From assembly GCA_024875585.1 (NCBI GenBank), contig GCA_024875585.1_4107.1: a stretch of DNA of 64,000 nucleotides; one strand, 5' to 3'. Position numbers and translations under genes: made by a program. Source of the stretch: a phage. Positions 13,742 to 51,622 of this stretch are shown here, piece by piece (the stretch's first letter is position 1; every line of letters starts with the position of its first letter). A model generated the notes under the pieces. That model had not been told where the DNA came from and searched no databases. It saw only the letters and a program-made list of their open reading frames with translations.

Positions 13742-13768
13742 TACCAGGGGTTGACTCTGGTATTTTTG
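13742..13768 (+). terminator. rho-independent terminator
   Basis: hairpin taccag-gggttgact-ctggta then TTTTT. Confidence 0.55.
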
Positions 13769-13797
13769 TATGATACATTATCCTAAAGGAGAATTTT

Positions 13798-24868: not shown

Positions 24869-25144
24869 ATGAATTATAAATTTCTACAATATACATACAC
24901 AATATTATTTGATTTACATCACAATGGACGATATATCAACACAATACGAGAAAACACATTTACTCATATGTTATGGATTGATTACTTAGAAACGATTCGT
25001 GCATATTTTGTTAATACTGAGATAATCATTCGTGGTAAAAAACAGAAGATTCAACATGTTAATAGTTATGGTGGTAAATTAACTCTAACATTTACCGATA
25101 ATAATACTAATGAAATATGTTGTATCGAGTTGGTGAACATATGA
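24869..25144 (+). CDS. family-C small protein (N-terminal F.QYTYT.L motif)
   Basis: 91-aa ORF; paralogous to the next five ORFs. Confidence 0.6.
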   Translation: MNYKFLQYTYTILFDLHHNGRYINTIRENTFTHMLWIDYLETIRAYFVNTEIIIRGKKQKIQHVNSYGGKLTLTFTDNNTNEICCIELVNI

Positions 25145-25407
25145 ATTATAAAGATTTCCAATTAACATATAAGATTATTCGCAATCTAGCACACAGCAAT
25201 AATAGCCCTAGTCTAGAAGACACATGCACAGAAATGATCCATACGATTCGTGCAAAGATTGAAGAAAATTTCAGTACTGTTATTATTAATGATGACCATG
25301 CAGAATTTTCTGATATAATCATTAGACGTGATGGTAAAGTTGAGGTTCAGTACTACACTGATTTTGGATTTACAAGTGTACCGTTGGAGATATTCCCTTG
25401 GGATTAA
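25141..25407 (+). CDS. family-C small protein
   Basis: ORF starting MNYKDFQLTYKII; ATGA overlap. Confidence 0.55.
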   Translation: MNYKDFQLTYKIIRNLAHSNNSPSLEDTCTEMIHTIRAKIEENFSTVIINDDHAEFSDIIIRRDGKVEVQYYTDFGFTSVPLEIFPWD

Positions 25408-25709
25408 ATTTAAATGATATACAATTCACTTATAAGGTACTATATGATTTGTATGATGCATACCTTGTTAGTAACAAAATAGGTTCACATAACCCAACCA
25501 AAGAACAATCATTTATTGATTTATATATTGAGTACTTAGATTCTATTGAAAACTATCTCAAAAAGAATTACAGTACTTTTATCGATGGAAATGATACATT
25601 CGATTTCTATGGTGTGCAATCATATGATGGTATAATCCATGTTCAATTTCAGGAAAGAACCGATAGGGAATTTATCGAAATTAAAGTTGTGAAGTTGGTG
25701 AATTTATAA
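25398..25709 (+). CDS. family-C small protein
   Basis: ORF with DIQFTYKVLYDL; probable TTG start. Confidence 0.5.
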   Translation: MGLNLNDIQFTYKVLYDLYDAYLVSNKIGSHNPTKEQSFIDLYIEYLDSIENYLKKNYSTFIDGNDTFDFYGVQSYDGIIHVQFQERTDREFIEIKVVKLVNL

Positions 25710-25719
25710 GAGGTTACAT

Positions 25720-26031
25720 ATGTTATTAAATGATATACAATTTACATACAAATTTTTGTATATCCAATTCGCAACGGTTGATGCTGGTGAATATATCTAC
25801 AGTGAAGTTTATCGTTCGATATGGATAAAGTTTTTAGATGAATTACATGAATATTACCATGATTTGCGTATAGTTCGTAATAATAAAATATACAAATTCC
25901 GCGATATTGTTAGTCATAGCGGTAAGCTACGATTGGAATTAAGTACTGATAGTGATGTTGATTGGATTGGTGTAAATTTACTGGAGTTGGAGAATGAAAA
26001 GCAACTTAAAGGAAATACAAGTATTTTATAA
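25720..26031 (+). CDS. family-C small protein
   Basis: ORF MLLNDIQFTYKFLY with AGAGG RBS. Confidence 0.6.
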   Translation: MLLNDIQFTYKFLYIQFATVDAGEYIYSEVYRSIWIKFLDELHEYYHDLRIVRNNKIYKFRDIVSHSGKLRLELSTDSDVDWIGVNLLELENEKQLKGNTSIL

Positions 26032-26278
26032 ATTCTTATACTTGTCATATGTTAAAGATGAGTACTATGAAAGTGTGTATTATTTTTTATGGCAACATTA
26101 CCGTACTATAGTAAGAGATTTATATCTAGGAAAATCTATCATATACAATGGTGAAAAATGTACATGTACGGATGTAGTTAGTTTTAATGGTTCTTTAACA
26201 CTGTGTTTCAGATGCGATAATAATAGTGGGTCATTTTCATTAAACGTATATCAGTTAGAAGGAATAAATTTTGAATAA
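25994..26278 (+). CDS. family-C small protein
   Basis: ORF with EIQVFYKFLYLS. Confidence 0.5.
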   Translation: MKSNLKEIQVFYKFLYLSYVKDEYYESVYYFLWQHYRTIVRDLYLGKSIIYNGEKCTCTDVVSFNGSLTLCFRCDNNSGSFSLNVYQLEGINFE

Positions 26279-28546: not shown

Positions 28547-28571
28547 AGGCCAGCGTTTGCTGGTCTTTTTT
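28547..28571 (+). terminator. rho-independent terminator
   Basis: hairpin ccagc-gttt-gctgg then TCTTTTTT. Confidence 0.65.
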
Positions 28572-30160: not shown

Positions 30161-30424
30161 ATGAATATTCAAGATAGATTACAATTACTATACACTATTG
30201 AACAGGCTGCTTTTGAACTTGTTAATAAAATCTCCGAAGAACTTCCCAAAGGAACTATAGTTCGTGTACGTGAGAGGGATTATGAATCTGGAGAAATTGA
30301 AGAACTAGTACTGACCGTGAATAAAGTAACATACTATGAATCTGAGTTGGCTATCCAATGTAGATCGGAAGATGGTAAAATATACTATTATGACACTGGT
30401 GTAGATATAGAGGTAATAAAATGA
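30161..30424 (+). CDS. family-B small protein
   Basis: ORF; ATG 30161. Confidence 0.5.
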   Translation: MNIQDRLQLLYTIEQAAFELVNKISEELPKGTIVRVRERDYESGEIEELVLTVNKVTYYESELAIQCRSEDGKIYYYDTGVDIEVIK

Positions 30425-31563
30425 CCCTTTTGCAAATATATGAAGATTTAATGCACTTGTGCAATACAAACGATGCGTTCTTTTATGTGGATCATAAAAG
30501 TCCTGCTGGTGGAACGTATCGTGTATTCAGTTATCGTCTAGCATCATATACTGATTTCATGCAACCCAATGCATTAGAAACCCGTGGATCTATGTGGGAA
30601 ATTGATGAAGAAGGTAATATGATTCGTTGTGCTGCTCGTACTATGAAAAAGTTCTTTAATGCTTACGAGAATCCTGCTACAATGTTCCCTGCTAACACCA
30701 CATGCGATGACATTGCAGTAGTGATGCCTAAATTGGATGGTTCAGTGATCAGTACTTACCGTGACAATGATGGTGAGATTCGTTGTAAATCACATACTGC
30801 ATTGTATTCTGACCATGCGATTAACAGTACTCGACTTATTAACGAGAACCAGAATCTATATCAGTACATCGATGAAGCTGAACGTTTAGGTTACACAGTT
30901 AATATGGAGTATACAAGCCCAGAGTACCGAATTGTATTACCGTATCAGGTAGAACAATTGTTTGTGCTGAACGTTCGTCATCGTGTAAGTGGTGAGTTGC
31001 TATGTGGTAAAGCATTACGTGATAAGTTTCCATGTCTTTCACAGTACAGCACTAATATGACAGGAAAAGATATTCATCACACTTTTCCTGTGCGAAATTC
31101 ATTCCGTGAAAGCGTTGATGAAGTTCATAAAATGCTTGACATTGAGGGTTTTGTTTGCATTTTAAAAGATGGGACAATGTGTAAAATAAAGACTGACTGG
31201 TACAGTTCATTACATCTTACAAAAGATAGTATTATTATTGATTCTCATTTATATGAAGCTGTATTAAATGGTTCAAGTGATGATTTAAAACAATTGTTCA
31301 GTTCTGACGAATATGCTATGCAAAAGATATTAAGAATGGAACAGTTGGTTTTTTCGTGCTATAATGCATTACAAGATGAAGTAGAAAGCTTCGTCAATGA
31401 ACACAAGCACTTAGAGCGAAAGGAATTCGCATTGAAGGTTCAGACGTGCTTATCTAGTGAACTGAATCGTCAGGGCTTGGCATTTGCAATGTATAATAAT
31501 AAGAAAGTTGATTACAAAGATACACTTATCAAATACATGAAAATTATACTAAAAGATTTTTAG
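30421..31563 (+). CDS. rnlA: RNA ligase 1 (T4 gp63/RnlA-like)
   Basis: 380 aa; N-terminal GGTYRVFSY...ALETRG and KxDG adenylation motif (MPKLDGS), laid out as I recall T4 Rnl1. Confidence 0.88.
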   Translation: MTLLQIYEDLMHLCNTNDAFFYVDHKSPAGGTYRVFSYRLASYTDFMQPNALETRGSMWEIDEEGNMIRCAARTMKKFFNAYENPATMFPANTTCDDIAVVMPKLDGSVISTYRDNDGEIRCKSHTALYSDHAINSTRLINENQNLYQYIDEAERLGYTVNMEYTSPEYRIVLPYQVEQLFVLNVRHRVSGELLCGKALRDKFPCLSQYSTNMTGKDIHHTFPVRNSFRESVDEVHKMLDIEGFVCILKDGTMCKIKTDWYSSLHLTKDSIIIDSHLYEAVLNGSSDDLKQLFSSDEYAMQKILRMEQLVFSCYNALQDEVESFVNEHKHLERKEFALKVQTCLSSELNRQGLAFAMYNNKKVDYKDTLIKYMKIILKDF

Positions 31564-31593
31564 TACTAACTAGCCTAAGCACAAGGAGAAGTG

Positions 31594-31848
31594 ATGGCTA
31601 AACCTAAGTATAAAAATGACGGTTCCCTTTCTCCAACTGAGTTCAGGAAAATACAACAAGAAATCGATGAATTACAGCACAAACGCTCAATGAAAGGTGT
31701 GAAGATAAGTAAGAAGAGAATCGAGAATACTTTCGGATGTAGTAGTACTGAATATAAGAAGAAAAGGAAACCGAAGGGTGTTAAGCCGAGAATACATGAT
31801 GTAACTCGCTATACATCAAAACGTGAAAATAAATTTGATCCACTATAA
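31594..31848 (+). CDS. small basic protein
   Basis: 84-aa Lys/Arg-rich ORF with AAGGAG RBS. Confidence 0.5.
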   Translation: MAKPKYKNDGSLSPTEFRKIQQEIDELQHKRSMKGVKISKKRIENTFGCSSTEYKKKRKPKGVKPRIHDVTRYTSKRENKFDPL

Positions 31849-31857
31849 GGAGTTCAT

Positions 31858-32088
31858 ATGAAAGTTGAAGTTCAGCATAGTATTGTTCAAGATATGTCTG
31901 TAGTTAAATTTCTTTCATTAAAAGATTACTTTAGATGTATCAAGTTCCTAGAAGAATCTCATTTAAAATGGACTCCATTAAAGTACAGTTCATCCAAAGA
32001 CACTGCTAGTATTCGTTGTGATGAAGCTGTACTCGTAAAAATCTCTAAAAGATTTGGGATAGGTAAAGTGAATGAGCACAGTAAATGA
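31858..32088 (+). CDS. hypothetical small protein
   Basis: 76-aa ORF. Confidence 0.5.
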   Translation: MKVEVQHSIVQDMSVVKFLSLKDYFRCIKFLEESHLKWTPLKYSSSKDTASIRCDEAVLVKISKRFGIGKVNEHSK

Positions 32089-32326
32089 ACTAAAATACTA
32101 CAACAAAATTGCGGATACGTTTATTACTCATTTATATGAAGAATTCAGTAGTATCCGCAAGGAATATACAGGTAAATGTATTTTATATAGTTCTTATCTT
32201 AGTGGAAGAATTGAACGTGCTTACATTACTAAAGTGAAGTTTTCTGATGATTATCAATTACTATTTGAATTGGATGATTGTTTAGTCATTGAAGCTGATT
32301 TAATAGTAGATGTGCTGAACAATTGA
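32072..32326 (+). CDS. hypothetical small protein
   Basis: 84-aa ORF. Confidence 0.5.
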   Translation: MSTVNELKYYNKIADTFITHLYEEFSSIRKEYTGKCILYSSYLSGRIERAYITKVKFSDDYQLLFELDDCLVIEADLIVDVLNN

Positions 32327-32332
32327 GGACAT

Positions 32333-32647
32333 ATGAATAAAGAACTTGCATATAAGGGTATCGAAAAGCTAAAGTTCGTTGAAAAGGAACTAATAGAATC
32401 AGTTGAAACAATGGTTGAAGATTACGTTTTTGATTTTAAGAAAACATTAATTGGATGTAAAGTCAAATGCTGGGATCATACCATTAGAGAATGGTTCAGT
32501 GCTATAATTCTTGATGTTAAAGTATCTCGAACTGGTATTGGTAACTTAGTAAATGGTGAATGCTTTGTATACACTGAATACAATAACGGTACAAGACACC
32601 TTTCAAAAGGATGGCACAATCTCGAAGATGTAGAATTCATTGAGTAA
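32333..32647 (+). CDS. family-B small protein (LIGCKVKC)
   Basis: 104-aa ORF. Confidence 0.5.
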   Translation: MNKELAYKGIEKLKFVEKELIESVETMVEDYVFDFKKTLIGCKVKCWDHTIREWFSAIILDVKVSRTGIGNLVNGECFVYTEYNNGTRHLSKGWHNLEDVEFIE

Positions 32648-32659
32648 CAAGGAGTAATA

Positions 32660-33592
32660 ATGCCAACTATCACCTTAACAATTGGGTTGCCTGGGTGTGG
32701 TAAAACTACATGGGCAGTGCAAGAGATTAAAAACGCCAAATCTAAGACTATCAACATCAACCGTGATGATATTCGTGAATCTATGGCGGGGTCACATGAT
32801 GCTTACAAATTCAACGATGCTAATGAGCAGTACGTAACTACTTTACAGTTCAGTGCAGCAAATTTAGCAGCAGAGAATGGTTGGAACATCATCATATCCG
32901 ATACGAACCTTAAACAACATTTCCGTGATCTCTGGAAAGTATGGGCTAAAGATAATGATTATGATTACAAAGAAAAGAACTTCTATGATGATTTTGTACC
33001 TAATGAAGACCGTGGTGCAGATGTTCATGAATTCTTTAAGATTAAAGAGTTCGTAAAACTTTGTAAGAAATATAACCGCCAGCGTGAGCGTTCAGTACAA
33101 GATAATATCATTGACACTATGGCAGATACTTACTATTATAGTAAAGCAATGCACATTGGTTACTATGGTAATTCAAGAGAAGCCGCTGTTATCGTTGATA
33201 TTGACGGAACTCTTGCTCATAAATGGGGTCGTAATCCTTACGATGAAAGTACTGTACTACAAGATACACCAGATGAAGAAGTTATTTTGTCTATTATCGC
33301 TGAAGCAGTTTTCCATAAACGTAAGATTATTGTAATGAGTGGGCGTACTGAAGGGTGTCGTGCAGACACAGAACAGTGGCTTAAGAATTGGGGTGTTCCT
33401 TACGATGCATTGTTTATGCGAGGCATCGATGATAAACGACCCGATGATGTGGTAAAATATGAGTTGTATATGAATAACGTCGTGCATCATTACGATGTTA
33501 AAAAAGTATACGATGACAGATCACAAGTCGTATTCATGTGGCGTAAACTACTTGGATTAAAAGTGATGCAAGTTGCAGAAGGAAATTTCTGA
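32660..33592 (+). CDS. pseT: polynucleotide 5'-kinase/3'-phosphatase (T4 PseT-like)
   Basis: P-loop GLPGCGKTT in the N-terminal kinase domain; HAD phosphatase motif DIDGTLA plus DDR near the C-terminus; AAGGAG RBS. Confidence 0.9.
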   Translation: MPTITLTIGLPGCGKTTWAVQEIKNAKSKTININRDDIRESMAGSHDAYKFNDANEQYVTTLQFSAANLAAENGWNIIISDTNLKQHFRDLWKVWAKDNDYDYKEKNFYDDFVPNEDRGADVHEFFKIKEFVKLCKKYNRQRERSVQDNIIDTMADTYYYSKAMHIGYYGNSREAAVIVDIDGTLAHKWGRNPYDESTVLQDTPDEEVILSIIAEAVFHKRKIIVMSGRTEGCRADTEQWLKNWGVPYDALFMRGIDDKRPDDVVKYELYMNNVVHHYDVKKVYDDRSQVVFMWRKLLGLKVMQVAEGNF

Positions 33593-33597
33593 CACAA

Positions 33598-33628
33598 AAG
33601 GGATCAATGTATGATCCCTTTTTCTTTT
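33598..33628 (+). terminator. rho-independent terminator
   Basis: hairpin gggatca-atgta-tgatccc then TTTTTC. Confidence 0.8.
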
Positions 33629-33640
33629 AAGGTATATTAT

Positions 33641-33817
33641 AATGAATGTAAAAACACAGATGTTATTACAAAAAGAATACTTAGAAAATATAGAAATGTT
33701 CTATAGATTGTCTTTATACGAAAATAAACATAAAAAATATAACTTTTCTAAACAACTAACCACAAGTACTAATGATTATCTATTTTCATCAATGTTTTAT
33801 GTGAGAGGTTTATTATA
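33641..33817 (+). CDS. small hypothetical protein (58 aa)
   Basis: ORF below track cutoff; stop overlaps the next ATG (TAATG). Confidence 0.3.
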
Positions 33818-34075
33818 ATGGATAAATTTCACACAGATATAACACAGATAGGTAATCTTATCAATAGTCTAATTACTGATTTAGAAGAAAAGTACTTAGG
33901 TCGAAATGTATACGTTGAAATGTATGAAACATATGGTGTTATTGATATGATTTATTACAGTGCATTGAAGTGTGAAATACGTTTAACAGTATGTTTGTTT
34001 GAAAAAGATACATTCAACAGAAGTACTGCAATTCGTCAGGTTGGTGTAGATGACATTGAATTATATGAGGAATAA
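33818..34075 (+). CDS. family-B small protein (KYLGRNVYV)
   Basis: 85-aa ORF. Confidence 0.55.
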   Translation: MDKFHTDITQIGNLINSLITDLEEKYLGRNVYVEMYETYGVIDMIYYSALKCEIRLTVCLFEKDTFNRSTAIRQVGVDDIELYEE

Positions 34076-34329
34076 TGATGTTTGAACAGGACGTAGAGCT
34101 ATTCAAAAGACATATTGAATATTTGACTGTTTTAGAGAATGATTTAACCACAAAATACAAAGGAATTAGAGTCCAGTGTTGGTATGATGACTGGGATTAT
34201 AAAAGGGAACTTACTATTGACCGAATTTATTTCAGTGATGGTGTACTGAATGTACATGGTGTAAATGATTTTGGTCATTCATATACATATTCTAATAATG
34301 CTAAATTTAAAAGGATCTGCAATGAATGA
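34075..34329 (+). CDS. family-B small protein (KYKGIRVQC)
   Basis: 84-aa ORF. Confidence 0.55.
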   Translation: MMFEQDVELFKRHIEYLTVLENDLTTKYKGIRVQCWYDDWDYKRELTIDRIYFSDGVLNVHGVNDFGHSYTYSNNAKFKRICNE

Positions 34330-34624
34330 ATATTATCATAATTTATTCGATTACATAAAACTAATAGATGATCTTTCTTTTGAATTTCTCAGTACTGAAA
34401 AAGTTGATGAACCTCTCTATTATGATTGTATTAGTTCACTGTGTTTAGATGAAAAAGAGATATTAGCAAATAACTTACCATCCACGGTCTGTGTAATCAA
34501 TGGTTCCAAGGCTGTGGTGTCTGAGGTTAATTTTCATAAATCACTTAATACAATTGTTTACAAGTTCGATAACACTTGGTTTAATCACGTAACTAGTAAT
34601 ATTAAATCTGTGAGATTTTTATGA
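34322..34624 (+). CDS. hypothetical small protein
   Basis: ORF; start ATG 34322. Confidence 0.5.
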   Translation: MNEYYHNLFDYIKLIDDLSFEFLSTEKVDEPLYYDCISSLCLDEKEILANNLPSTVCVINGSKAVVSEVNFHKSLNTIVYKFDNTWFNHVTSNIKSVRFL

Positions 34625-34917
34625 ATATAAAAAAATTATTTGAACAAGTAAATTTATTGTACTTGTGTTCAGACGGCTCAGATAAGGAATATAGTGAAGT
34701 TTATTTAGAACTATTTAGAACTGAAATACATCTAATTCGAAGATACCTAATTGATAACAAAACTGAAGTAAAAGTTAGATACCATAATGGTACTTTAAAG
34801 AATGGTATAATTATTGGATTGATAGTTACAAGAATGTCCAGTAATATTAAAGTTGCAGTAAGATTAATGACTGATGATGGTGTCTACACAATAGAAGCTA
34901 ATGAGATTATATATTAA
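34621..34917 (+). CDS. hypothetical small protein
   Basis: 98-aa ORF, ATGA overlap. Confidence 0.5.
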   Translation: MNIKKLFEQVNLLYLCSDGSDKEYSEVYLELFRTEIHLIRRYLIDNKTEVKVRYHNGTLKNGIIIGLIVTRMSSNIKVAVRLMTDDGVYTIEANEIIY

Positions 34918-35223
34918 ATGGATATACAAACATTCAATAAACTAAAGTACTATGATAATGGTTTTGTATTAATAATTAACGAACTTGATAGTATACCATA
35001 CGAATATCATAATCAAGTAATGAATATAGTAAAAAATATATGTGAAGAACTAAAAAGTATATTTAAAAATGAATATGTTTATGATTTAGGTAATAATAGA
35101 ACAAAACTATACATAAAGAAATTCTGGGGAACACATTGTGGTTTGATGGTCGATTTGGGTTTAAGTTTAGACAATAATTTCGAATCATGTTCATTATATT
35201 TGGACGAAATGAGAATCTCATGA
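34918..35223 (+). CDS. hypothetical small protein
   Basis: 101-aa ORF. Confidence 0.5.
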   Translation: MDIQTFNKLKYYDNGFVLIINELDSIPYEYHNQVMNIVKNICEELKSIFKNEYVYDLGNNRTKLYIKKFWGTHCGLMVDLGLSLDNNFESCSLYLDEMRIS

Positions 35224-35240
35224 GACATAAGGACATTCGG

Positions 35241-35249
35241 TGATATAAT
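35241..35249 (+). promoter_or_regulatory. TGATATAAT extended -10 promoter element
   Basis: intergenic, upstream of ORF 35281. Confidence 0.45.
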
Positions 35250-35280
35250 TTGATTATATCATTAATAAGGAGAGGTTGAA

Positions 35281-35607
35281 GTGAATGGGTCGTTTTTAGA
35301 AATACTAGAAAAGACAACTGGGATGCTTTCAAGTTCACTAATGCACATTTTCAGTACTAGTAATTTTTACGATTCGCGTGTGTTAGATGTAATTTGTAAT
35401 AGCTATGTTGAATGTGTGTCTAATACAATATGTCCATTTAACGCTTATTCAAATGATGGTGTTGAAAAGTTTATTATATCCAAGATTCAATGTGGTTTTG
35501 GTGATTGGATAGTTCTATGTGAACGTAGTGGTGTGTCTTTATACATCGAAGAAATTGGAAAATTTATATACAAAGGAGTAGAATATGTTAGTCCCAATTA
35601 TTATTAG
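35281..35607 (+). CDS. hypothetical protein
   Basis: 108-aa ORF; GTG start after AAGGAGAGG. Confidence 0.5.
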   Translation: MNGSFLEILEKTTGMLSSSLMHIFSTSNFYDSRVLDVICNSYVECVSNTICPFNAYSNDGVEKFIISKIQCGFGDWIVLCERSGVSLYIEEIGKFIYKGVEYVSPNYY

Positions 35608-36232
35608 TAGTGCATATGTCATCGGTATTATTATTTCTGGTATGCTTGCATATAACTATAACAGAAGTATTCTAGGTTATGCAGTACTTGGTGCAGTTCT
35701 AAGTCCAGTAATTGCAATTGGTGTTCTTATCATCTTAGGTGAGAAAAACACAAAATATTTTATTACTGAAGAACTTGATAAAATCACTCCAGCACCGGAG
35801 ACGGTTATTCCAGAAGTTGAAGAAGAAGTAAAAGAAGTTGAAGTTCAAATGCAAGTTAAAGTACATAATACACTCGAAGAAACTGATCCTAAAGTTGTGG
35901 TGAATGTAGTTCCTGTCGTTGAAGATGTAAAACCAAAAGCCCAAAGATCCAAAAAAACCACTAAAACACAGAAAAATACTAAAACTGCAAAAAAATCACG
36001 TAACACTAAAGGTAAGAATAAAGGGAAATCGACGGATGAACAACAACTAGGTGTTCATAACCATACTGCACAAATTACATCGGCAGCGGCAGCGGGGGCA
36101 ATCGTAACATCACCAATCTACAACAATGATGATTACAGTGATTATAGTCGTCACAGTAGTTCCCCTTCTGATTCTTGTTCTTATGATAGTTCTAGCTCTG
36201 ATTCAAGTTCATCTTCTGGAAGTTGTGATTAA
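35585..36232 (+). CDS. membrane protein with Lys-rich linker and Ser/Asp-rich C-terminal tail
   Basis: two N-terminal hydrophobic helices, then a KTQKNTKTAKK stretch, then SSSDSSSSSGS low complexity. Confidence 0.55.
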   Translation: MLVPIIISSAYVIGIIISGMLAYNYNRSILGYAVLGAVLSPVIAIGVLIILGEKNTKYFITEELDKITPAPETVIPEVEEEVKEVEVQMQVKVHNTLEETDPKVVVNVVPVVEDVKPKAQRSKKTTKTQKNTKTAKKSRNTKGKNKGKSTDEQQLGVHNHTAQITSAAAAGAIVTSPIYNNDDYSDYSRHSSSPSDSCSYDSSSSDSSSSSGSCD

Positions 36233-36561
36233 TGTCAATGAAACCACTAATTCAACATAATATTTTTTATAGTTCATTATTCAAAATACAAGATGATTTT
36301 TATCAGACGTTGAGTAATGATCTTATAGGTAAAACTGTACGATATTCGGACCAATACATCAAACGTATGACAAGTCAGTATATTGACCCTGAATACGAAT
36401 ACGACATTGAACACATTAATCCCAATACTAGAATGAAAATCATTGAGATATTTAAGAATGGGAGAACTATAGGTGCTGAAATTGAGTACTTGAATTGTGA
36501 TTGTTATATAGATACAGAGTTGAGTTTGGATTATCTTGTTTTAGTGGATGATGAGGAATAA
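36232..36561 (+). CDS. family-B small protein (LIGKTVRY)
   Basis: 109-aa ORF. Confidence 0.55.
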   Translation: MSMKPLIQHNIFYSSLFKIQDDFYQTLSNDLIGKTVRYSDQYIKRMTSQYIDPEYEYDIEHINPNTRMKIIEIFKNGRTIGAEIEYLNCDCYIDTELSLDYLVLVDDEE

Positions 36562-36563
36562 TT

Positions 36564-36779
36564 ATGATAACATTTTTCGCAATATATGGATTTGTGGTAT
36601 TTGTCACATTTATAACCAACTTTTTAGTACTTAATTGGGGTTGTTTTAAAGATGAAATCATGATTGCCATGAATCTCCAAACAGCCGCACTAATGGCTAT
36701 TATTTGGCCTGTAACGTTAGTATACCTTTTTATTTCACTTACTCAAGATATTATTAACAAATATAAGAGAAAGAACTAA
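36564..36779 (+). CDS. small membrane protein
   Basis: 71-aa ORF with two hydrophobic segments. Confidence 0.5.
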   Translation: MITFFAIYGFVVFVTFITNFLVLNWGCFKDEIMIAMNLQTAALMAIIWPVTLVYLFISLTQDIINKYKRKN

Positions 36780-37036
36780 TGTTCAAAACCGACTTATCAC
36801 ATTTTCGATATCTTAGGTCTTTGGCTGATGATTTTATAAATGATCTTAAGCCAAAATATATTGGTCAAGAAGTACGATTAATAAACTCCAGAGGGTATGG
36901 AAAGTATATTATATCGGATATGTATATTAGTGCAGGTGAGTGGCGTTTTAAAATTAACACTTATCTTAAAGATGGTTCTTTTGCTGGAACACAAGTTACT
37001 AAACATACTAATATTATATGGTTGGAGCAACAATGA
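36779..37036 (+). CDS. family-B small protein (KYIGQEVRL)
   Basis: 85-aa ORF. Confidence 0.55.
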   Translation: MFKTDLSHFRYLRSLADDFINDLKPKYIGQEVRLINSRGYGKYIISDMYISAGEWRFKINTYLKDGSFAGTQVTKHTNIIWLEQQ

Positions 37037-37776
37037 AACACTTTTTAGAAGTAACCGTGCCTGATGATAAAGATTTATATATTGTAGGTGATTTGCATGG
37101 TAATGGTAAACTATGGGATGCTACAGTAAAAGAATTTGGTATTACACACAATGATTATGTTTTCAGTGTAGGTGATGTTATCGACCGTGGAGAACAAAAT
37201 TCAAAGCTCCTATTTGAATTTTTGTTCGGAGAAAATCGTTACATGATTGCTGGAAATCATGAGATGATGTGTGTTGATTCAGAAACACTTCGAGATTGGT
37301 ATCATTGTTGGATAAGTAATGGCGGTGATAAATTCCTTGATGAAGTTGGGGGAACAGGCATTCAATTCTTTCGTCAGTACTTGAAAGATTTACCTATGAT
37401 TATCCAAATCAACCATAGAGGCTTGAAGATCGGGTTAGTTCATGCTGGAGTTCCTTTGGAATATACAACATGGGAACGATTTGTTAATGGGACAAAATCA
37501 CTTAGTGCTGATATAGTTGATAAGTGTTTGTGGGATAGGAAAACATTCGATTATTGTAGGACAAATAATACTTATTATGCACCTAAGTTAGATGGAGTGC
37601 ATTGTGTCTTTAGTGGACATACAGCAGTTACTGAACCACTCATTTATGGCAATCGCATTTGGATTGATAGTCAGTTCTTGACGGGTGACTTAACTCTCGC
37701 TACTCCACAAAGTGGTGGGATGAGATACTTACGTAAAGAAAAAGATGAGTACTCATTCAGTCGTTTCAAAAGGTAA
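37033..37776 (+). CDS. PPP-family metallophosphatase (Ser/Thr phosphatase or ApaH-like)
   Basis: signature motifs GDLHGN, GDVIDRG, GNHE. Confidence 0.75.
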   Translation: MKHFLEVTVPDDKDLYIVGDLHGNGKLWDATVKEFGITHNDYVFSVGDVIDRGEQNSKLLFEFLFGENRYMIAGNHEMMCVDSETLRDWYHCWISNGGDKFLDEVGGTGIQFFRQYLKDLPMIIQINHRGLKIGLVHAGVPLEYTTWERFVNGTKSLSADIVDKCLWDRKTFDYCRTNNTYYAPKLDGVHCVFSGHTAVTEPLIYGNRIWIDSQFLTGDLTLATPQSGGMRYLRKEKDEYSFSRFKR

Positions 37777-37781
37777 TAATT

Positions 37782-38051
37782 ATGCATGATGTAGTTAAAA
37801 AATATTTGAATGATAGATATATCATGGAAAAATCTATTAATTCTATCCTAAAAGATCATGATAATCAAATACGTGAGATTCTATCAAATAAACTTATTGG
37901 TTGTTCAGTTGAGTTCAACTACAAAAAGAATGTAGTGAAGATTGGAGTTATTAAACGTGTAGTTGCTGTTTATGTCCAAAATGTATATGTTGAAATTGAA
38001 TATGATGGTAAATTATCACAATTAAGCACTGAAGATTTAACATTTTTATAA
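37782..38051 (+). CDS. family-B small protein (LIGCSVEF)
   Basis: 89-aa ORF. Confidence 0.55.
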   Translation: MHDVVKKYLNDRYIMEKSINSILKDHDNQIREILSNKLIGCSVEFNYKKNVVKIGVIKRVVAVYVQNVYVEIEYDGKLSQLSTEDLTFL

Positions 38052-38061
38052 GGAAATAGAA

Positions 38062-38289
38062 ATGAAAGTAATTCAAGTTATGGTAGAAAAATACCAAACT
38101 GAAGATGGTCGTATTTTTGATTCAGCTAAACAAGCTGAACATCATGAACGTATTATTTCGGGTACACGTAAAGTGTGTCCTACATGTAATGGAACACAAC
38201 AAGTGCCGTCAGAAGATTACCGCAGCTTTTATGCTTGTCCATACTGTGATGGGAAAGGCTATGTAGAAAAACAAGAGGTATGGAAATGA
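38062..38289 (+). CDS. small zinc-ribbon protein (CPTC...CPYC)
   Basis: 75-aa ORF with two CxxC pairs. Confidence 0.5.
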   Translation: MKVIQVMVEKYQTEDGRIFDSAKQAEHHERIISGTRKVCPTCNGTQQVPSEDYRSFYACPYCDGKGYVEKQEVWK

Positions 38290-38699
38290 AATTGTATTGC
38301 TTAACTAATATGTACTGTCAAGGTGTCCAAGCTGGTATTCAAGCATTTCATGCTGGTGTTAAACTAATCAAAGAATATGAAGGTACTGCTTTCAGTACTA
38401 TGATTGATGAATGGTATAATGAGCACGAAACTATTGTAGTACTAAATGCGGGTGGACATGATAAATTAAATTCTTATTATAAAGACCTTAACAAACAGGG
38501 AACAGTTCCGTTTGCCAAATTCAATGAAGCTGGATTGAATGATGCTATTACATGTATCGCAGTACTGTGTACATCTGAAATGATTGAAGACATGGCTGTT
38601 ATGCGTATGAATCTTCCTGCTGGTGATCAGCTAATGCAAGTGAAATATGGTGCATTGTTTGACACACTTAAAGCAATCAGTACGATGAGGACAATTTGA
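38280..38699 (+). CDS. hypothetical protein
   Basis: 139-aa ORF. Confidence 0.55.
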   Translation: MEMKLYCLTNMYCQGVQAGIQAFHAGVKLIKEYEGTAFSTMIDEWYNEHETIVVLNAGGHDKLNSYYKDLNKQGTVPFAKFNEAGLNDAITCIAVLCTSEMIEDMAVMRMNLPAGDQLMQVKYGALFDTLKAISTMRTI

Positions 38700-39898
38700 T
38701 GGATTTTCCAGAGAAGTTATTTGTTGCACGTTCCTATGTAAACCACAACCAAGTTGATGGTTTTATCATTGATGCAACCAAATCACACACAAAAGCATTT
38801 GAGACAAAGAAAGAAAGAGCAGAGTATTGGGCAAAGAAGAACAATCTTCCATCGTTGTTTATTGACAACGTTCCAACCACTGGATTTTGTGTAGTTGATA
38901 AATTAACAATTCATGCACGAGAAACATATTTCACAATCCGTCACCCAGAAGGATTTGAATTTATGATTAGTGCAAAAAACATGAATGATTTAATTATCAA
39001 TAATGATATCATTAAAGGTGTTTTTGTAGACCCAATGTTTTTTAACAATAACTTAGAATTGATTAATGGTAAAACAAAAACATTTGCTAAGTTAGTTGAA
39101 AAACAAAATAAAAAAGAACAACAAAAAGAAACTGTGGCAAGTCTTAAAGTTGGTGATGGTTTCACTTATCTTAAAGAAGATTACTATTACTGCGGTAAAG
39201 TACATGCAATTTGTATCAAGAAAACTAAAGAATTTGCATATCCAGATAAAAGTTCAATATATCATTTAGTTTTTAATAGTACTCGTGGAACTTATGCATT
39301 GAATAAACGTTTGGATAATTACAATCTGGAACCTCGTGCACTCTTGAATAAGAAGACTACGACAGATGAAGAAATTAAACTTGCTAATGAATTTTGGCAA
39401 AGCTATAGAACAAACAGACATAACCCATTAGGTGAATCTAACATTCCAGTACTGGTACACAATAAATCATTTAAAGCAAAAGACCTAAAAATTAAATACG
39501 AAGAAATAAATGTTGATGACCTTATGAATAATGGACGTTTTAACGAGAACGTACCATTCATGACTAAAGATAATGAACAATCTTATCGCGTATTTTTTGG
39601 TGTAAGTAATAATACAACGCGTAGTTATTATGGACGTAACGGGGATTATACTATTCATTATATTGATAAATTTGAACGCTTTAGTGCATACCCAGTTCAA
39701 ATTGATGATAATGGAATTATGTCAATGGATGTTGATATTAATGAGCACACATCATTTAGTACATGGAATGGTTATCGTTCTCCATTCTTTCCACCAAATG
39801 AACGCAAAACATCAAGTACTCGTTACTATCAGGATAAACCATCTCACGTCCAATTATCAATTAGCAATCCACTTTTTATTGGAAAGTATTATCTATAA
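38696..39898 (+). CDS. hypothetical protein (400 aa)
   Basis: long ORF with ATGA overlap; no motif recognised. Confidence 0.6.
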   Translation: MMDFPEKLFVARSYVNHNQVDGFIIDATKSHTKAFETKKERAEYWAKKNNLPSLFIDNVPTTGFCVVDKLTIHARETYFTIRHPEGFEFMISAKNMNDLIINNDIIKGVFVDPMFFNNNLELINGKTKTFAKLVEKQNKKEQQKETVASLKVGDGFTYLKEDYYYCGKVHAICIKKTKEFAYPDKSSIYHLVFNSTRGTYALNKRLDNYNLEPRALLNKKTTTDEEIKLANEFWQSYRTNRHNPLGESNIPVLVHNKSFKAKDLKIKYEEINVDDLMNNGRFNENVPFMTKDNEQSYRVFFGVSNNTTRSYYGRNGDYTIHYIDKFERFSAYPVQIDDNGIMSMDVDINEHTSFSTWNGYRSPFFPPNERKTSSTRYYQDKPSHVQLSISNPLFIGKYYL

Positions 39899-39909
39899 AG
39901 GAATATACA

Positions 39910-41328
39910 ATGAGCATTTTAGCAATTCTTGAAAGCATTAAAAATACTAGCAGTACTCTGGGTAAAAAAGCTATCCTTGAACAAAACAAAGATAACCAAA
40001 CATTACAAAAAGTACTGAAATATACACTAGACCCTTCAATTGTAAGTGGGTATAAAAAGCTACCACAAGCTGATGATGTATACCAACATATGACATTAGA
40101 TGAAGCAATTGATAAGCTAGAATGCATTTACAAACGTGGTGTAACCGGAAATGCTGGACGTGACTTCATTGCTTCAGTACTGGGTTCTGTATCTGAAGAT
40201 GATCAGGAAGTTCTACGAAGAATGCTCACTAAGAACCTTGATTGTGGTATTCAAGAAAAGAACTGCAATGATGTGTTCGGGAAAGGTTTTATCAAAGACG
40301 AACCATACATGCGTTGTTCTTTAATTGACAAAAAGACTGCAAAGAACATTAACTTCAAAGATTATGGTTATGCTATATCAGAAGTGAAAATGGATGGTCA
40401 GTACTTGAACCACGTTGTCATTAATGGTTCATTAACTTCTACATCCCGTAATGGTAAACTATACGACTTCCTGGGTTGTCGTGATGGTGAGATGGCAGGT
40501 CTTGCTCACATCATCCAAAGTAAAGATGAACGTTTTAGTAGTGGTGTAGTCTTTATGGGTGAAGGTGTAGTACTGGACAATGATGGAGAAACCATTCTCC
40601 CACGCACTACTGGCAATGGTATAATTCAGAAAGCTGGAAAAGATAGTATCAGTCAGAATGAAGCAATGCGTACTGTATTTGTTCTATGGGATGTTGTTCC
40701 ATATGATGCATTTTGTGAAGGTGTATGGGATGTAAAACGTAAAGAACGTCGCGAGATCTTAGTAGATGCAATTAACGAACTCAGTAGTGATTTTGTTCGT
40801 ATGGTTGGATTCCGTAAAGTTCTAAACATCAAAGAAGCATTTGAGTACAATAGTGAACTAATGAACGAAGGTGAAGAGGGTTCAGTACTGAAATGTGAAG
40901 ATGGTATCTGGAAATCTCACACTTCTCCTAAGCAATTGAAAATGAAACTCAAAATGCAACTGGACTTGCGTATTGTTGGTTTCAATGAAGGTGAAGGTAA
41001 GCGTAAAGGTAGCCTTGGTTCTTTACAACTGGAAAGTGCGTGTGGTACATTGAAAGTTAATGTAGGTACAGGTATCCGTGAAAAAGATGCCGAATGGACA
41101 TTTAAAACTATCTGGGAAAGAATGCAAGAACTTATTGGTAAAGTGGTTACAGTTGAGTGTAATGACATTGTATTCGATAAGCGTACTGGTGAACCATCAC
41201 TATTTTTACCTGTATTTATTGAATTTAGATTTGACAAAAACACTTGCGACGATTATACTCGTATCTTAGAAATTCGTGATAGTGCAGTTGAAGTGTTTTC
41301 AAACAGTATTATTGAAGCATTAGGTTAA
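39910..41328 (+). CDS. ATP-dependent DNA ligase (T4 gp30-like)
   Basis: adenylation motif I KxDG (SEVKMDGQY); N-terminal ILEQNKDN and C-terminal LPVFIEFRFDK match T4 ligase as I recall it; 472 aa. Confidence 0.9.
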   Translation: MSILAILESIKNTSSTLGKKAILEQNKDNQTLQKVLKYTLDPSIVSGYKKLPQADDVYQHMTLDEAIDKLECIYKRGVTGNAGRDFIASVLGSVSEDDQEVLRRMLTKNLDCGIQEKNCNDVFGKGFIKDEPYMRCSLIDKKTAKNINFKDYGYAISEVKMDGQYLNHVVINGSLTSTSRNGKLYDFLGCRDGEMAGLAHIIQSKDERFSSGVVFMGEGVVLDNDGETILPRTTGNGIIQKAGKDSISQNEAMRTVFVLWDVVPYDAFCEGVWDVKRKERREILVDAINELSSDFVRMVGFRKVLNIKEAFEYNSELMNEGEEGSVLKCEDGIWKSHTSPKQLKMKLKMQLDLRIVGFNEGEGKRKGSLGSLQLESACGTLKVNVGTGIREKDAEWTFKTIWERMQELIGKVVTVECNDIVFDKRTGEPSLFLPVFIEFRFDKNTCDDYTRILEIRDSAVEVFSNSIIEALG

Positions 41329-41347
41329 CCATTTATTGGAGGTAATT

Positions 41348-42139
41348 ATGAAATTTGTCGTAACATCTGATGTACACGGTAGCACTGATTACCTTCATAG
41401 TGGGGATTACAGCGATACAGTACTGTTCATTGCTGGAGACTTCGATGAAGTTAAACGCAGTCGTTACCGTACTGGTATCGAATCACTATGTAAGCAGTTC
41501 AAAAATGTAGTGCTGGTTCCTGGCAATCACGAATACTATGGTTCTAATATCCACAAAACGCATAAAGTTCTGTCTGACATGCAAGATGAGATTCCCAATT
41601 TCATCTTTTTGCAAAACAAATTTGTATGGCTGGATGGGGTACTTCTTGTTGGTAGTACTCTGTGGACAGACTTCGATAAAGGTAACTCTTTGACTAAGTT
41701 TGATGCTCGTCAAAAGATGAATGATTATAAACATATCCGTCATGGAACAACATCCGAGCCTTGGCGTAAGAAGTTGACACCAGATGATACGGAGTTCATG
41801 CATTATAAAGATAAACAATTTATTAAAAATTCTATTGACACGGCTCGCTTTATGCATGATAATGATTTCAAGGTAATTGTGATTACACATCACGCACCAA
41901 GTTATCAAAGTGTTTCACCAAAATATAAAAATGATTCCCTGAATGGCTGTTACTGTTCAGATATGGATCAGTACATTGAAGATTTGGGTGCTGATATTTG
42001 GATTCATGGTCATGTTCATAGTAGCTTTGACTACCACATTGGTAAGACACGTATCATTTGTAATCCACGAGGCTATGAATCGTACAGTGGTGCTTGTGAG
42101 AATTTTGATTACAATCCTAAATTAGTATTTGAAATTTAA
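41348..42139 (+). CDS. calcineurin-like metallophosphoesterase
   Basis: DVHG, GDF and GNHEYY motifs; later HH and GHxH; GGAGG RBS. Confidence 0.65.
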   Translation: MKFVVTSDVHGSTDYLHSGDYSDTVLFIAGDFDEVKRSRYRTGIESLCKQFKNVVLVPGNHEYYGSNIHKTHKVLSDMQDEIPNFIFLQNKFVWLDGVLLVGSTLWTDFDKGNSLTKFDARQKMNDYKHIRHGTTSEPWRKKLTPDDTEFMHYKDKQFIKNSIDTARFMHDNDFKVIVITHHAPSYQSVSPKYKNDSLNGCYCSDMDQYIEDLGADIWIHGHVHSSFDYHIGKTRIICNPRGYESYSGACENFDYNPKLVFEI

Positions 42140-43005: not shown

Positions 43006-43701
43006 ATGGTTGAACAATTCAATTTTGGTGGTTATGCTAATGGTGAAGTAAGTAACATTTCTATTCCGTATGTAGTTGAAAAAGTTAATGGTTCAGAGCG
43101 TACATATGATCTAGCATCTCGTATGATGCAAGACCGTATCATTTTCCTTGATACTGATTTCAATGACCAGATGGCACATATCATCAAACAACAATTGGTG
43201 TGGTTAGACTCACAAGGTGATTCCCCTATTACATTCTATATTAGTTCACCAGGTGGTTCAGTACATGCAGGTTTGGGCATCGCTGATATTGCTAAATCTT
43301 GTGTATCACCAATCCGTACTGTAGTAATGGGTTATGCAGCATCAATGGGGTGTTATACACAATCTGTTATTGGGACTAAAGGTTTCCGTTTGGGTGGTAA
43401 ACGTTCCTACTTCATGTGTCACCAAGTAAGTTCTGGTACGAAAGGTCTAATTACTGACCAGAAAATTTCACTTAAACATTCTGATGAACTGAACACGTTG
43501 CTGACGAAAGAAATCGCTGAAGCTGTTGGCGTTTCTCATGAACAACTACTGAAAGATGCAGACCGTGATTTGTGGTTGAATGCTGAAGAAGCACTCGAAT
43601 ATGGTGAAAAAGGATTTATCGATGGTATTATCCTTGGACCACGCAACGAGAAAGGTCAATACCTAGTCAAGCGTCGTGGTGGTGTTGAAGAGTGGGTTTG
43701 A
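43006..43701 (+). CDS. clpP: ClpP-family serine protease
   Basis: strongly resembles the bacterial ClpP core as I recall it: SSPGGSV, GYAASMG (catalytic Ser), MCHQ (His), ADRD (Asp); GAGGA RBS. Confidence 0.85.
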   Translation: MVEQFNFGGYANGEVSNISIPYVVEKVNGSERTYDLASRMMQDRIIFLDTDFNDQMAHIIKQQLVWLDSQGDSPITFYISSPGGSVHAGLGIADIAKSCVSPIRTVVMGYAASMGCYTQSVIGTKGFRLGGKRSYFMCHQVSSGTKGLITDQKISLKHSDELNTLLTKEIAEAVGVSHEQLLKDADRDLWLNAEEALEYGEKGFIDGIILGPRNEKGQYLVKRRGGVEEWV

Positions 43702-44504: not shown

Positions 44505-44543
44505 AAAAAATAGGAATCCCACACAAGGATTCCTATTTTTATT
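44505..44543. terminator. rho-independent terminator (A-run / hairpin / T-run)
   Basis: hairpin taggaatcc-cacacaa-ggattccta flanked by AAAAAA and TTTTT. Confidence 0.8.
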
Positions 44544-44592: not shown

Positions 44593-45117
44593 ATGAAATA
44601 TACACACCTAAGTATAGATGATACTAATATCTGGTTAGATAACATAATCAAGACATTAGAATTAATTAAGCTTACATTACAGAAATCAATTGATATTGAA
44701 ACTAATATTAAACACGAAATATTAAATTATTATCACAAAAACAAATATTGTAAGTTTTTCTCTAAATTAATTTATGGATTATATGATAGTGAAGATATTT
44801 GTATCGGTTACAGTACTGGTATTTGCTTTACAATTAATGGTCTTATGAATGATTTAAATTTCCGTCTTTCAGAAGAACAGCGAAATTTTCGTCTATTTTG
44901 TAAGGATATTATGGATGAAGATGAAATATCATTTGTTGTTGAATTGAATAGAACATGGTCTACATATGCAGATAAACCATTTGAAATCAATGAAACCGAT
45001 GTGTTAAACTATTTTCGAGTTATGAAAATTCATGATTTGTGTAAAAACGCATTGTTAAGTATTGGAGCTTATAATGAAACATACGACTTGGTTGAAGATA
45101 GCAGAAGTAGTTGCTGA
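44593..45117 (+). CDS. hypothetical protein
   Basis: 174-aa ORF. Confidence 0.55.
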   Translation: MKYTHLSIDDTNIWLDNIIKTLELIKLTLQKSIDIETNIKHEILNYYHKNKYCKFFSKLIYGLYDSEDICIGYSTGICFTINGLMNDLNFRLSEEQRNFRLFCKDIMDEDEISFVVELNRTWSTYADKPFEINETDVLNYFRVMKIHDLCKNALLSIGAYNETYDLVEDSRSSC

Positions 45118-45553
45118 AGAAAGTAAATGTATTTCACAAAAAGTTGGTTGTGTTATTGTTAAAAATAATCGAGTATTGAGTACTGGATATAACGGTACAC
45201 CATCAAAGCAACCTAACTGTTGTGATGTTAATAAACATCTCGTAAACAATGGTCAATTTCAAAATTGGATTGATGACGATGCTAAACACTTACATCACGA
45301 GTGGAGTAATATTCATGAGATCCATGCAGAAATGAATGCATTACTATATAGTTCACCACAAGAACGTCAAGGTGCAACACTTTACACCACACTCCAACCG
45401 TGCTATACTTGTTCTAAGTTAATTGCCGGTAGTGGTATTTCTCGTGTAATTTACGAAAAATCGTATCGTCGTACTCCACCAGAAGCTATTAAAGTACTGG
45501 AAGATGCTGGAATTATTGTTAATTGCATTTATGATAAGGGTCTTGATAAATGA
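45074..45553 (+). CDS. cd: dCMP deaminase
   Basis: zinc-binding HAEMNAL and PCYTCSKL motifs of the dCMP deaminase family; GGAG RBS. Confidence 0.85.
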   Translation: MKHTTWLKIAEVVAEESKCISQKVGCVIVKNNRVLSTGYNGTPSKQPNCCDVNKHLVNNGQFQNWIDDDAKHLHHEWSNIHEIHAEMNALLYSSPQERQGATLYTTLQPCYTCSKLIAGSGISRVIYEKSYRRTPPEAIKVLEDAGIIVNCIYDKGLDK

Positions 45554-50860: not shown

Positions 50861-50869
50861 GGATTGCGT

Positions 50870-51622
50870 ATGATATCAGAAAAATTTATAAGTAATGAGG
50901 GAAACAAGAGATTACTTATTATCTCAGGAGCAGGTCTTTCCGTTGAAAGTGGGATGGAGCCATTTCGATTTGATGATGGCTTATGGGATACATTTAAAAT
51001 TAATGACGTATGTAATATTGCAAATTTAGATACAAAATATCATGTTGTTCATTCGTTTTATAACACACTGCGTGTTAAACTGGGTCAATGTGAACCAAAT
51101 GCAATGCATTATTTTATAAAATCCTTAGAGGACCAATATGGTGATTGTTTTCTTCATATGACCTCCAATATGGATGATCTTTATACACGTATTGGTGGCA
51201 AAGAACTAAAACTTCATGGTAATTTATGTGAAGTGATAGAAAATTATAGTATTAATGGTGATGATTATAACATTGTTAACTGTGGTTATGAGCCATATAT
51301 ACCAAAACATGATGTTTTTGCTAAACCAAATGTAGTGATGATTGGTGAATATCACCGTTATGTTGATGGTGTTCGTTTGCCAATATATGAAGAAAGAAAT
51401 AATGTTTTAAAAACACTTAATGAAAACGATACTGTGATTGTTATTGGAAGTAGTGATACAGTACTTGTGTGGTCCAGATTAGCTGCGGCATTACCCTGTT
51501 ATAGCGTTAATGTTAACATTCGTAAAAATGATAATGATTTTCTGTTCAATGAAAAAATTATTCAACCAGCTACCAAAGCAATACCACAATTAGAGACTAT
51601 AATTAAGGAACGTATGAAATGA
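50870..51622 (+). CDS. Sir2-family NAD-dependent deacylase/ADP-ribosyltransferase-like protein
   Basis: sirtuin motifs GAGLSVESGMEPFR, TSNMDDL, LHG, VMIGE, VIGSS; AAGGA RBS. Confidence 0.7.
   Translation: MISEKFISNEGNKRLLIISGAGLSVESGMEPFRFDDGLWDTFKINDVCNIANLDTKYHVVHSFYNTLRVKLGQCEPNAMHYFIKSLEDQYGDCFLHMTSNMDDLYTRIGGKELKLHGNLCEVIENYSINGDDYNIVNCGYEPYIPKHDVFAKPNVVMIGEYHRYVDGVRLPIYEERNNVLKTLNENDTVIVIGSSDTVLVWSRLAAALPCYSVNVNIRKNDNDFLFNEKIIQPATKAIPQLETIIKERMK

Follow-up and report, generated by a model that had tools for sequence, protein, structure and literature searches.

Does a T4-like set of nucleic-acid end-healing and sealing genes that stands among metallophosphoesterase genes make up an RNA-repair pathway with added enzymes, or a repair pair and a DNA ligase with accessory neighbors? 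The question is raised by a phage contig (GCA_024875585.1_4107.1 of the NCBI GenBank assembly GCA_024875585.1), of which a stretch of 64,000 nucleotides (nt), hereafter the window, was analyzed. Between positions 30421 and 42139, it encodes an RNA ligase (RnlA), a polynucleotide kinase/phosphatase (Pnkp, the product of pseT), a PPP-type phosphatase, an ATP-dependent DNA ligase, and a second, calcineurin-like phosphoesterase (Table 1). With a probability of about 0.85, the region belongs to the conserved backbone of early genes of a 121Q-like jumbo coliphage, in which the RnlA/Pnkp pair and the ligase are accompanied by metallophosphoesterases as accessory genes. All five genes, which a first-pass annotation had named from the sequence alone, are present on the + strand with exactly the coordinates given there, and their family scores lie far beyond chance. 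The identities of RnlA, PseT, and the gp30-like ligase were fully supported by family models and T4 alignments, and the classes of both phosphoesterases by profile and Pfam matches. The finding is correct but ordinary and largely published, as the same gene names are found in dozens of deposited jumbo-phage genomes.

The phage is an Asteriusvirus, a 121Q/PBECO4-like jumbo coliphage. In megablast searches, the region 30421–42139 shared 98.9% identity with Escherichia phage UE-S1 and matched at least 38 GenBank phage records, 32 of which span at least 80% of its length. All matched phages are members of Asteriusvirus, a genus of jumbo coliphages of ~350 kilobases (kb), or are close to it, and 121Q, PBECO4, G17, phAPEC6, and slurp01-type phages share a DNA identity of 92–93% with the region (121Q, 92.4%). 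The genes of the block carry the same annotations in the deposited UE-S1 and 121Q records. All plausible genes between 27.5 and 45.6 kb are located on the + strand, with a G+C content of 30–37% throughout, and neither a tRNA gene nor any Rfam family was detected in the 64-kb window.

RnlA passed the curated equivalog model TIGR02308 ("T4 RnlA family") over its full length, with 297.7 bits against a cut-off of 242.25, matched both Pfam models RNA_lig_T4_1 and T4_Rnl1_C, and shares an identity of 36% with T4 Rnl1 (E 1.5e-63). Its residues 268–379 correspond to T4_Rnl1_C (62.5 bits, with the gathering score at 27), and the C-terminal domain of Rnl1 is linked to tRNA specificity in T4. Residues K104-L-D106-G107, E163, E242-G243, and K255/K257 align with T4 K99, D101, G102, E159, E227/G228, and K240/K242, the catalytic residues of T4 Rnl1 (the KxDG lysine nucleophile, the Glu of motif III, the EG of motif IV, and the KxK of motif V); catalytic positions of T4 Pnkp and ligase are likewise conserved on alignment (below). 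Compared with T4 Rnl1, the RnlA proteins of the window phage, Klebsiella phage RaK2 (locus L011, 521–1666), and Cronobacter phage GAP32 (L003, 2627–3778) carry an insert of ~18 residues after the motif III region.

Pnkp matched the phosphatase model PF25109 (HAD_PNKP, 150.8 bits) and the P-loop kinase model PF13671 (50.4 bits) and is 34% identical to T4 PseT (E 6e-45). In its kinase domain, GLPGCGKTT (K15/T16), D36, and R39 align with T4 K15/S16, D35, and R38, and in its phosphatase domain, D180-I-D182-G-T184, R191, R229, D262, and D285/D286 align with T4 D165, D167, R176, R213, D254, and D277/278. T4 R126 aligns with Q141 of the window protein, which has an Arg at both 140 and 142. The DNA ligase matched PF01068 (52.9 bits vs. 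26.2) and phrog_114 (398.9 bits), and its identity to T4 gp30 is 31% over 487 columns (E 6e-46). Its K160-M-D-G aligns with the K159 motif of T4, and E323, K344, and K346 align with T4 E344, K365, and K367. The OB-fold model PF14743 scored 22.3 bits, under its gathering score of 28, over a region that aligns with T4 gp30.

The best-supported function within the block is that RnlA and Pnkp would form a T4-type tRNA break-repair pair. Homology and the intact catalytic residues suggest that Pnkp may remove the 2',3'-cyclic or 3'-phosphate and phosphorylate the 5'-OH of tRNAs whose anticodon loop has been cleaved by anticodon nucleases of the host, and that RnlA may then reseal the healed tRNAs as in the T4 pathway. 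The ligase probably seals DNA nicks in replication and repair.

The gene arrangement, with metallophosphatases around the ligase, had been regarded as departing from the canonical T4 one. This does not apply to RnlA, Pnkp, and the ligase, which keep both the order and the spacing known from T4, and is true of the filler genes only. In T4, the order on one strand over 11.7 kb is rnlA, alc, pseT.3, pseT.2, pseT.1, pseT, cd.5–cd.1, cd, 31.2, 31.1, 31, rIII, 30.9–30.1, and 30, while in the window rnlA, four small open reading frames (ORFs), pseT, 16 ORFs, and the ligase gene occupy 10.9 kb, with cd following 3.7 kb further on. No homology between the filler genes of T4 and those of the window was detectable by BLASTP. 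T4 30.2 and 30.3 were also considered as homologs of the 399-amino-acid (aa) and PTH2-like genes upstream of the ligase and were rejected (best BLASTP E, 0.19). The T4-like order of rnlA, pseT, and ligase, with cd nearby, suggests common descent with T4-like phages.

Terminator-like hairpins divide the block into two predicted transcription units, which would comprise RnlA and Pnkp (~28.6–33.6 kb) and both metallophosphoesterases together with the zinc-finger, PTH2-like, 399-aa, ligase, and ClpP proteins (~33.6–44.5 kb). Such terminator-like sites are over-represented, with 16 found against 5.8 in shuffled sequences. The widest intergenic gap of the block, 49 nt, lies straight after pseT and contains the hairpin that would separate the two units, and the spacing of genes inside each unit ranges from −92 to +64 nt.

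The PPP-type enzyme aligns over its full length with lambda phosphatase (1G5B; phmmer E 2e-16), matches the NinI-like profile phrog_246 with 223.7 bits, and keeps the motifs GDLHG, GDVIDRG, and GNHE as well as the later His ligands VHAG and SGHT, all aligned with lambda phosphatase. Judged by family and fold, it most likely acts as a lambda NinI-type protein phosphatase that depends on Mn. It stayed far under the cut-offs of the models for E. coli PrpA (64 bits, cut-off 326) and PrpB (54 bits, cut-off 332) and is an equivalog of neither, and its nearest phage relatives belong to jumbo, rV5-like, and T5-like phages (30–41% identity). Phage records with NinI-like homologs number 1,320, among them T5-like, rV5-like, and lambdoid genomes; RnlA was found in 1,643 phage records, mostly T4-like. 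Among Salmonella phages, 291 records have the NinI-like enzyme vs. 38 with RnlA, and among Vibrio phages 373 vs. 53; these genus-level counts, which are lower bounds for the independence of the phosphatase and RnlA, imply hundreds of records that contain the phosphatase but lack RnlA. Among Escherichia phage records, RnlA was found in 637, the first phosphatase in 331, and the second phosphoesterase in 33. The two phosphoesterases had been described as flanking the ligase, which holds loosely: the second enzyme starts 19 nt past the ligase stop, but the PPP-type enzyme is located 2.1 kb upstream with four genes in between. The PPP-type enzyme is a stand-alone protein, not fused to kinase and ligase modules as in bacterial Pnkp-Hen1, and its gene is separated from pseT by 3.4 kb that include a terminator-like hairpin.

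In the second metallophosphoesterase, the motifs D-x-H, GD, GNHE, HH, and GHxH are invariant across 40 homologs, which suggests a functional binuclear site. The protein was modeled with very high confidence by AlphaFold (predicted local distance difference test [pLDDT] score, 94.9), and its closest solved fold is that of Mycobacterium tuberculosis PptH (PDB 6UNC), with which 236 of the 263 residues align at 17% identity. The next folds are two uncharacterized thermophile proteins (scores of 19.4 and 18.2), MPPED2 (17.7), Lmo2642 (16.7), Mre11 (16.2), and Rv0805 (14.8). The sequence profile also ranked 6UNC best (E 2e-8), but over 68 residues only (positions 5–72). According to PMC8557913, PptH, which releases phosphopantetheine from holo-carrier proteins, occurs in mycobacteria only. 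No carrier-protein Pfam match was obtained among the called and scanned neighbors in the window, KVP40, and Stenotrophomonas phage DLP_6, some small ORFs being outside the scan. A lead from the KVP40 record, a PF00550 note on KVP40.0053 two genes past the homolog, was dropped, as current Pfam fails to reproduce it. Sequence and model together suggest a PptH/Icc-like phosphodiesterase, a description that stops short of calling the protein PptH, and its family and fold indicate that it most likely acts on a substrate other than nucleic-acid ends.

This second family was found in at least 197 phage records, including KVP40-like vibriophages, cyanophages, and Rhizobium, Caulobacter, and Brevundimonas phages, and the 33 Escherichia records all fit the jumbo group in number. 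The homolog lies 2.2 kb upstream of gp30 in KVP40, two genes past the ligase in DLP_6, 4 kb from an RNA ligase and near nicotinamide adenine dinucleotide (NAD)-salvage genes in Pseudomonas phage Astolliot, between tRNA arrays and two genes upstream of a deformylase gene in CcrColossus, and among hypothetical genes in a cyanophage. Proximity to a ligase thus recurs in T4-related lineages and is not general. Two genes past its homolog, DLP_6 also encodes a 243-aa protein (L007, 7974–8705) with a P-loop kinase (APS_kinase-like) and a cytidylyltransferase-like segment.

The same locus was compared across the jumbo-phage clade. The layout of 121Q is identical to that of the window gene for gene. 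UE-S1 has the same layout plus a 356-aa ORF with CapR domains (PF21817, 59 bits; L001, 16923–17993) between the ligase and the second phosphoesterase, at the site corresponding to 41329–41347 of the window; this ORF is absent from the window and 121Q and is therefore probably a mobile insertion. In GAP32, the order of the set is unchanged, and an additional ORF of 140 aa follows the ligase. RaK2 keeps rnlA, pseT, the NinI-like gene, the PTH2-like gene, the 399-aa homolog, and the ligase, but the place of the second phosphoesterase is taken by a hypothetical gene and an endonuclease. Xanthomonas phage XaC1 keeps the RNA ligase, kinase, ligase, ClpP, and cd with neither phosphoesterase annotated, and four ORFs of 350–385 aa precede its ligase, one of which is the 399-aa homolog. 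Between rnlA and pseT, small ORFs number five in RaK2 and three in GAP32 and XaC1. Vibrio phage 2.275.O keeps pseT, a different small metallophosphoesterase, the 399-aa homolog, the second phosphoesterase, ClpP, and cd, with no ligase at the locus. Two metagenome contigs repeat the backbone, and a metallophosphoesterase follows the ligase in one (L013) and not in the other (L014). The backbone of the clade is accordingly rnlA, pseT, the 399-aa gene, the ligase, ClpP, and cd, while both phosphoesterases are lineage-variable accessories. Asteriusvirus and GAP32 share the position of the two genes, but not every relative does.

The first-pass annotation had proposed that the phosphoesterases add the hydrolysis of 2',3'-cyclic phosphates or of signal nucleotides, a role for which lambda phosphatase provides biochemical precedent but gene context gives no support. 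If one or both enzymes extended RNA end-healing, they would act on cyclic or 2'-/3'-phosphates of cleaved tRNA and widen the range of nuclease products that RnlA can seal. Lambda phosphatase hydrolyzes 2',3'-cyclic nucleoside monophosphates in vitro (PMC2190708), and the healing module of Clostridium thermocellum Pnkp, of the bacterial Pnkp-Hen1 system, is a lambda-like metallophosphoesterase (PMC3675462). Jumbo-phage RNA repair has been reviewed as comprising Rnl1, kinase-HAD phosphatases, PTH2, and, in a few phages, calcineurin-like phosphatases (PMC7824862), and the Astolliot homolog of the second enzyme lies, as noted, close to an RNA ligase. The first enzyme also matches phrog_8238, a kinase-phosphoesterase-ligase profile (E 1.3e-6), but with 27.8 bits against the 223.7 bits of its best profile, the NinI-like one. 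The HAD site of Pnkp, on the other hand, is intact, and the same domain heals cyclic ends in T4, where 2',3'-cyclic phosphate ends are healed by Pnkp alone (PMC3592404). The phosphoesterases are predicted to be transcribed separately from rnlA-pseT, NinI-like enzymes are numerous among T5-like, rV5-like, and lambdoid phages, and RaK2 and XaC1 keep rnlA-pseT with the second enzyme absent at the locus. Because a T4-type Pnkp already heals cyclic ends, the predicted units are separate, the families occur independently of RnlA, and the second enzyme is dispensable in relatives with the repair pair, we regard a role in RNA healing as improbable.

It is also unlikely, though a little less so, that the second or both phosphoesterases serve counter-defense by degrading immune-signaling nucleotides of the host, such as cyclic mono-, di-, or oligonucleotides or ADP-ribose derivatives. 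The second phosphoesterase retains the complete class-III phosphodiesterase-type motif set, but this set is common to the whole superfamily and therefore uninformative on the substrate. Some records call homologs cyclic AMP phosphodiesterase, whereas the second phosphoesterase matched no NCBIfam model. The homologs in GAP32, Vibrio phage 2.275.O, KVP40, and Astolliot have NAD-salvage or Sir2 genes in their vicinity, the window itself carries a SIR2 gene 9 kb downstream, and the family is spread over large phages of many hosts; the gene contexts, however, are heterogeneous. Highly improbable is a functional PptH-type phosphopantetheinyl hydrolase that strips the arm from the host holo-acyl carrier protein and disturbs lipid synthesis: despite the shared fold, the identity of 17%, the match confined to 68 residues, the description of PptH as unique to mycobacteria (PMC8557913), and the lack of a carrier-protein or transferase gene nearby all argue against it. 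A combined proposal, in which the second phosphoesterase is host-directed, with an immune signal or the phosphopantetheine arm instead of nucleic-acid ends as its target, and the 399-aa protein is a dedicated partner of phage ATP-dependent ligases, is speculative and, in our view, doubtful. If either phosphoesterase were a counter-defense enzyme, the metallophosphoesterase class would join the known phage signal-degrading enzymes.

Several observations, among them the activities of lambda phosphatase and the C. thermocellum module mentioned above, weigh against a backbone with accessory phosphoesterases. The transcription units are drawn from hairpin prediction alone, and read-through is common in phages. 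A sigma-70 promoter scan gave 105 sites against a shuffled mean of 107.6, no excess, and thus did not define the unit starts. T4 K119 is replaced by His in the RnlA of the window phage (His125), RaK2, and GAP32. The homologs near ligases in KVP40, DLP_6, and Astolliot could reflect a functional link besides shared descent. Moreover, all functions were assigned by homology, and no experiment on this phage was found. We nevertheless favor the conserved backbone with accessory phosphoesterases, in which, from family and fold, both metallophosphoesterases look active but would act outside the healing-sealing pathway.

Table 1. Features of the block and its surroundings (positions in the window; aa, amino acids).
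Feature	Position	Strand	Remarks
Terminator-like hairpin with T-run	28547–28566	+	8 pairs, 5 of them G-C; predicted upstream boundary of the rnlA-pseT unit; terminator annotated equivalently in UE-S1
RnlA, T4 Rnl1-type RNA ligase, 380 aa	30421–31563	+	with C-terminal Rnl1 domain PF20819
Four small ORFs (85, 76, 84, and 104 aa)	31591–32647	+	between rnlA and pseT; without family assignment
Pnkp/PseT, putative bifunctional 5'-kinase and HAD-type 3'-phosphatase, 310 aa	32660–33592	+	
Terminator-like hairpin	33596–33622	+	4 nt past the pseT stop; 11 pairs, then TTTTTCTTTT; terminator annotated there in UE-S1
Twelve tightly packed ORFs, mostly 58–109 aa	33642–37036	+	no Pfam match at gathering threshold
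Lambda-phosphatase (NinI)-like PPP-family binuclear metallophosphatase, 247 aa	37033–37776	+	
75-aa protein with two CxxCxG(T/K)(Q/G) motifs, DnaJ-type zinc finger	38062–38289	+	10-nt overlap with the next gene
PTH2-like hydrolase, candidate peptidyl-tRNA hydrolase, 139 aa	38280–38699	+	phrog_3668
399-aa multi-beta-barrel protein	38699–39898	+	1-nt overlap with the PTH2-like stop (TGATG); ends 11 nt before the ligase
ATP-dependent DNA ligase, T4 gp30 type, 472 aa	39910–41328	+	
Second binuclear metallophosphoesterase, PptH/Icc-like phosphodiesterase fold, 263 aa	41348–42139	+	PF00149, 48.8 bits; phrog_1649, 241.8 bits
ClpP-family protease	43006–43701	+	141.4 bits; conserved landmark downstream of the block
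Palindromic terminator-like hairpin	44506–44540		placed by the scan on the - strand; putative end of the ligase/phosphoesterase unit; equivalent UE-S1 terminator on the + strand
dCMP deaminase (cd)	45062–45553	+	T4-syntenic landmark

Of the genes that separate the first phosphatase from the ligase, three had not been named in the first-pass annotation. The 75-aa protein has weak DnaJ and anti-TRAP matches and is annotated as DnaJ-like in 121Q. The PTH2-like protein scored 27.5 bits against the gathering score of 23 for PF01981, over residues 21–96 only (76 of 139), and 22.3 bits against the cut-off of 126 for the NCBIfam Pth2 equivalog; searched as a single sequence or as an eight-sequence profile, it matched no PDB sequence. 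Its homologs were found in 270 phage records. In Rheinheimera phage Barba19A (L019, 2751–5404), the homolog overlaps the stop of a CCA-adding tRNA nucleotidyltransferase gene and is followed by a PF10127 nucleotidyltransferase, and in Aeromonas phage AS-zj (L018, 4911–6929), it lies 4 nt upstream of a DNA ligase. For jumbo phages, a role of PTH2 in ribosome rescue, complementing RNA repair, has been discussed (PMC7824862). Considering the weak family match and the gene context elsewhere, the window protein probably frees tRNA from peptidyl-tRNA.

The 399-aa gene is found directly upstream of the ligase across the jumbo-phage clade. The AlphaFold model of its product is confident (pLDDT 85.6) and shows a string of small beta-barrels and helices. 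No match was obtained in Pfam, NCBIfam, or PDB sequences, and BFVD returned uncharacterized phage proteins only. A profile recovered 558 representative relatives, and none of the 10 distant relatives that were checked has a Pfam domain. Together with the PptH-like phosphodiesterase, this ligase-adjacent protein represents a widespread uncharacterized family that may merit follow-up.

Among the small genes of the block, the ORF at 35585–36232 encodes a 215-aa membrane protein whose N-terminal stretch is hydrophobic and whose tail is rich in Ser, and that at 36564–36779 a hydrophobic product of 71 aa. No credible family was found for the remaining ORFs of the block (mostly 58–119 aa) or for the 215-aa protein. 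The idea that the small ORFs are one paralogous family was rejected: only 33818–34075 and 36779–37036 are linked, and an iterated hidden Markov model search added none.

Elsewhere in the window, an all-against-all BLASTP comparison (E ≤1e-3) placed 14 + strand ORFs of ~110–195 aa at 74–12237 in one paralogous family, and smaller paralogous families were observed by all-against-all BLASTP at 24869–26278 (three ORFs) and 13155–14349 (two ORFs). Downstream of the block, an 890-aa protein with nine Big_2 Ig-like domains is encoded on the - strand (46074–48746), and further genes encode a SIR2-family protein (50864–51622), a PIN and PhoH fusion (52860–54299), a protein with a C-terminal WGR domain (56546–57517), and the anaerobic ribonucleotide reductase NrdD (61996–63861).

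Compared with known systems, the proteins of the block resemble characterized counterparts to different degrees. The PTH2-like protein has a Pfam PTH2 match above gathering in common with archaeo-eukaryotic Pth2, which has been reported in jumbo phages (PMC7824862), but stays far under the Pth2 equivalog cut-off. The second phosphoesterase shares with PptH (6UNC) the binuclear-site motifs and also fold outside the metallophosphoesterase core; unlike PptH, however, its phage family occurs in phages of Proteobacteria and cyanobacteria and without carrier-protein context. The first phosphatase has all metal- and phosphate-binding motifs in common with lambda NinI (1G5B), although the overall identity is low. 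With the T4 set, the window shares the same three enzyme families, domain architectures, and catalytic motifs, with a dCMP deaminase gene close by in both. In contrast, the T4 intervals hold alc, spanin-like genes, cd, gene 31, rIII, and 30.1–30.9, where the window has unrelated small ORFs, and both metallophosphoesterases as well as the PTH2-like and 399-aa genes are missing from this interval in T4. While cd precedes the ligase in T4, it follows the ligase in the window, and the enzymes are 31–36% identical. The order of rnlA, pseT, and ligase that is common to T4 and the RaK2/121Q clade provides a synteny anchor between Straboviridae and jumbo phages.

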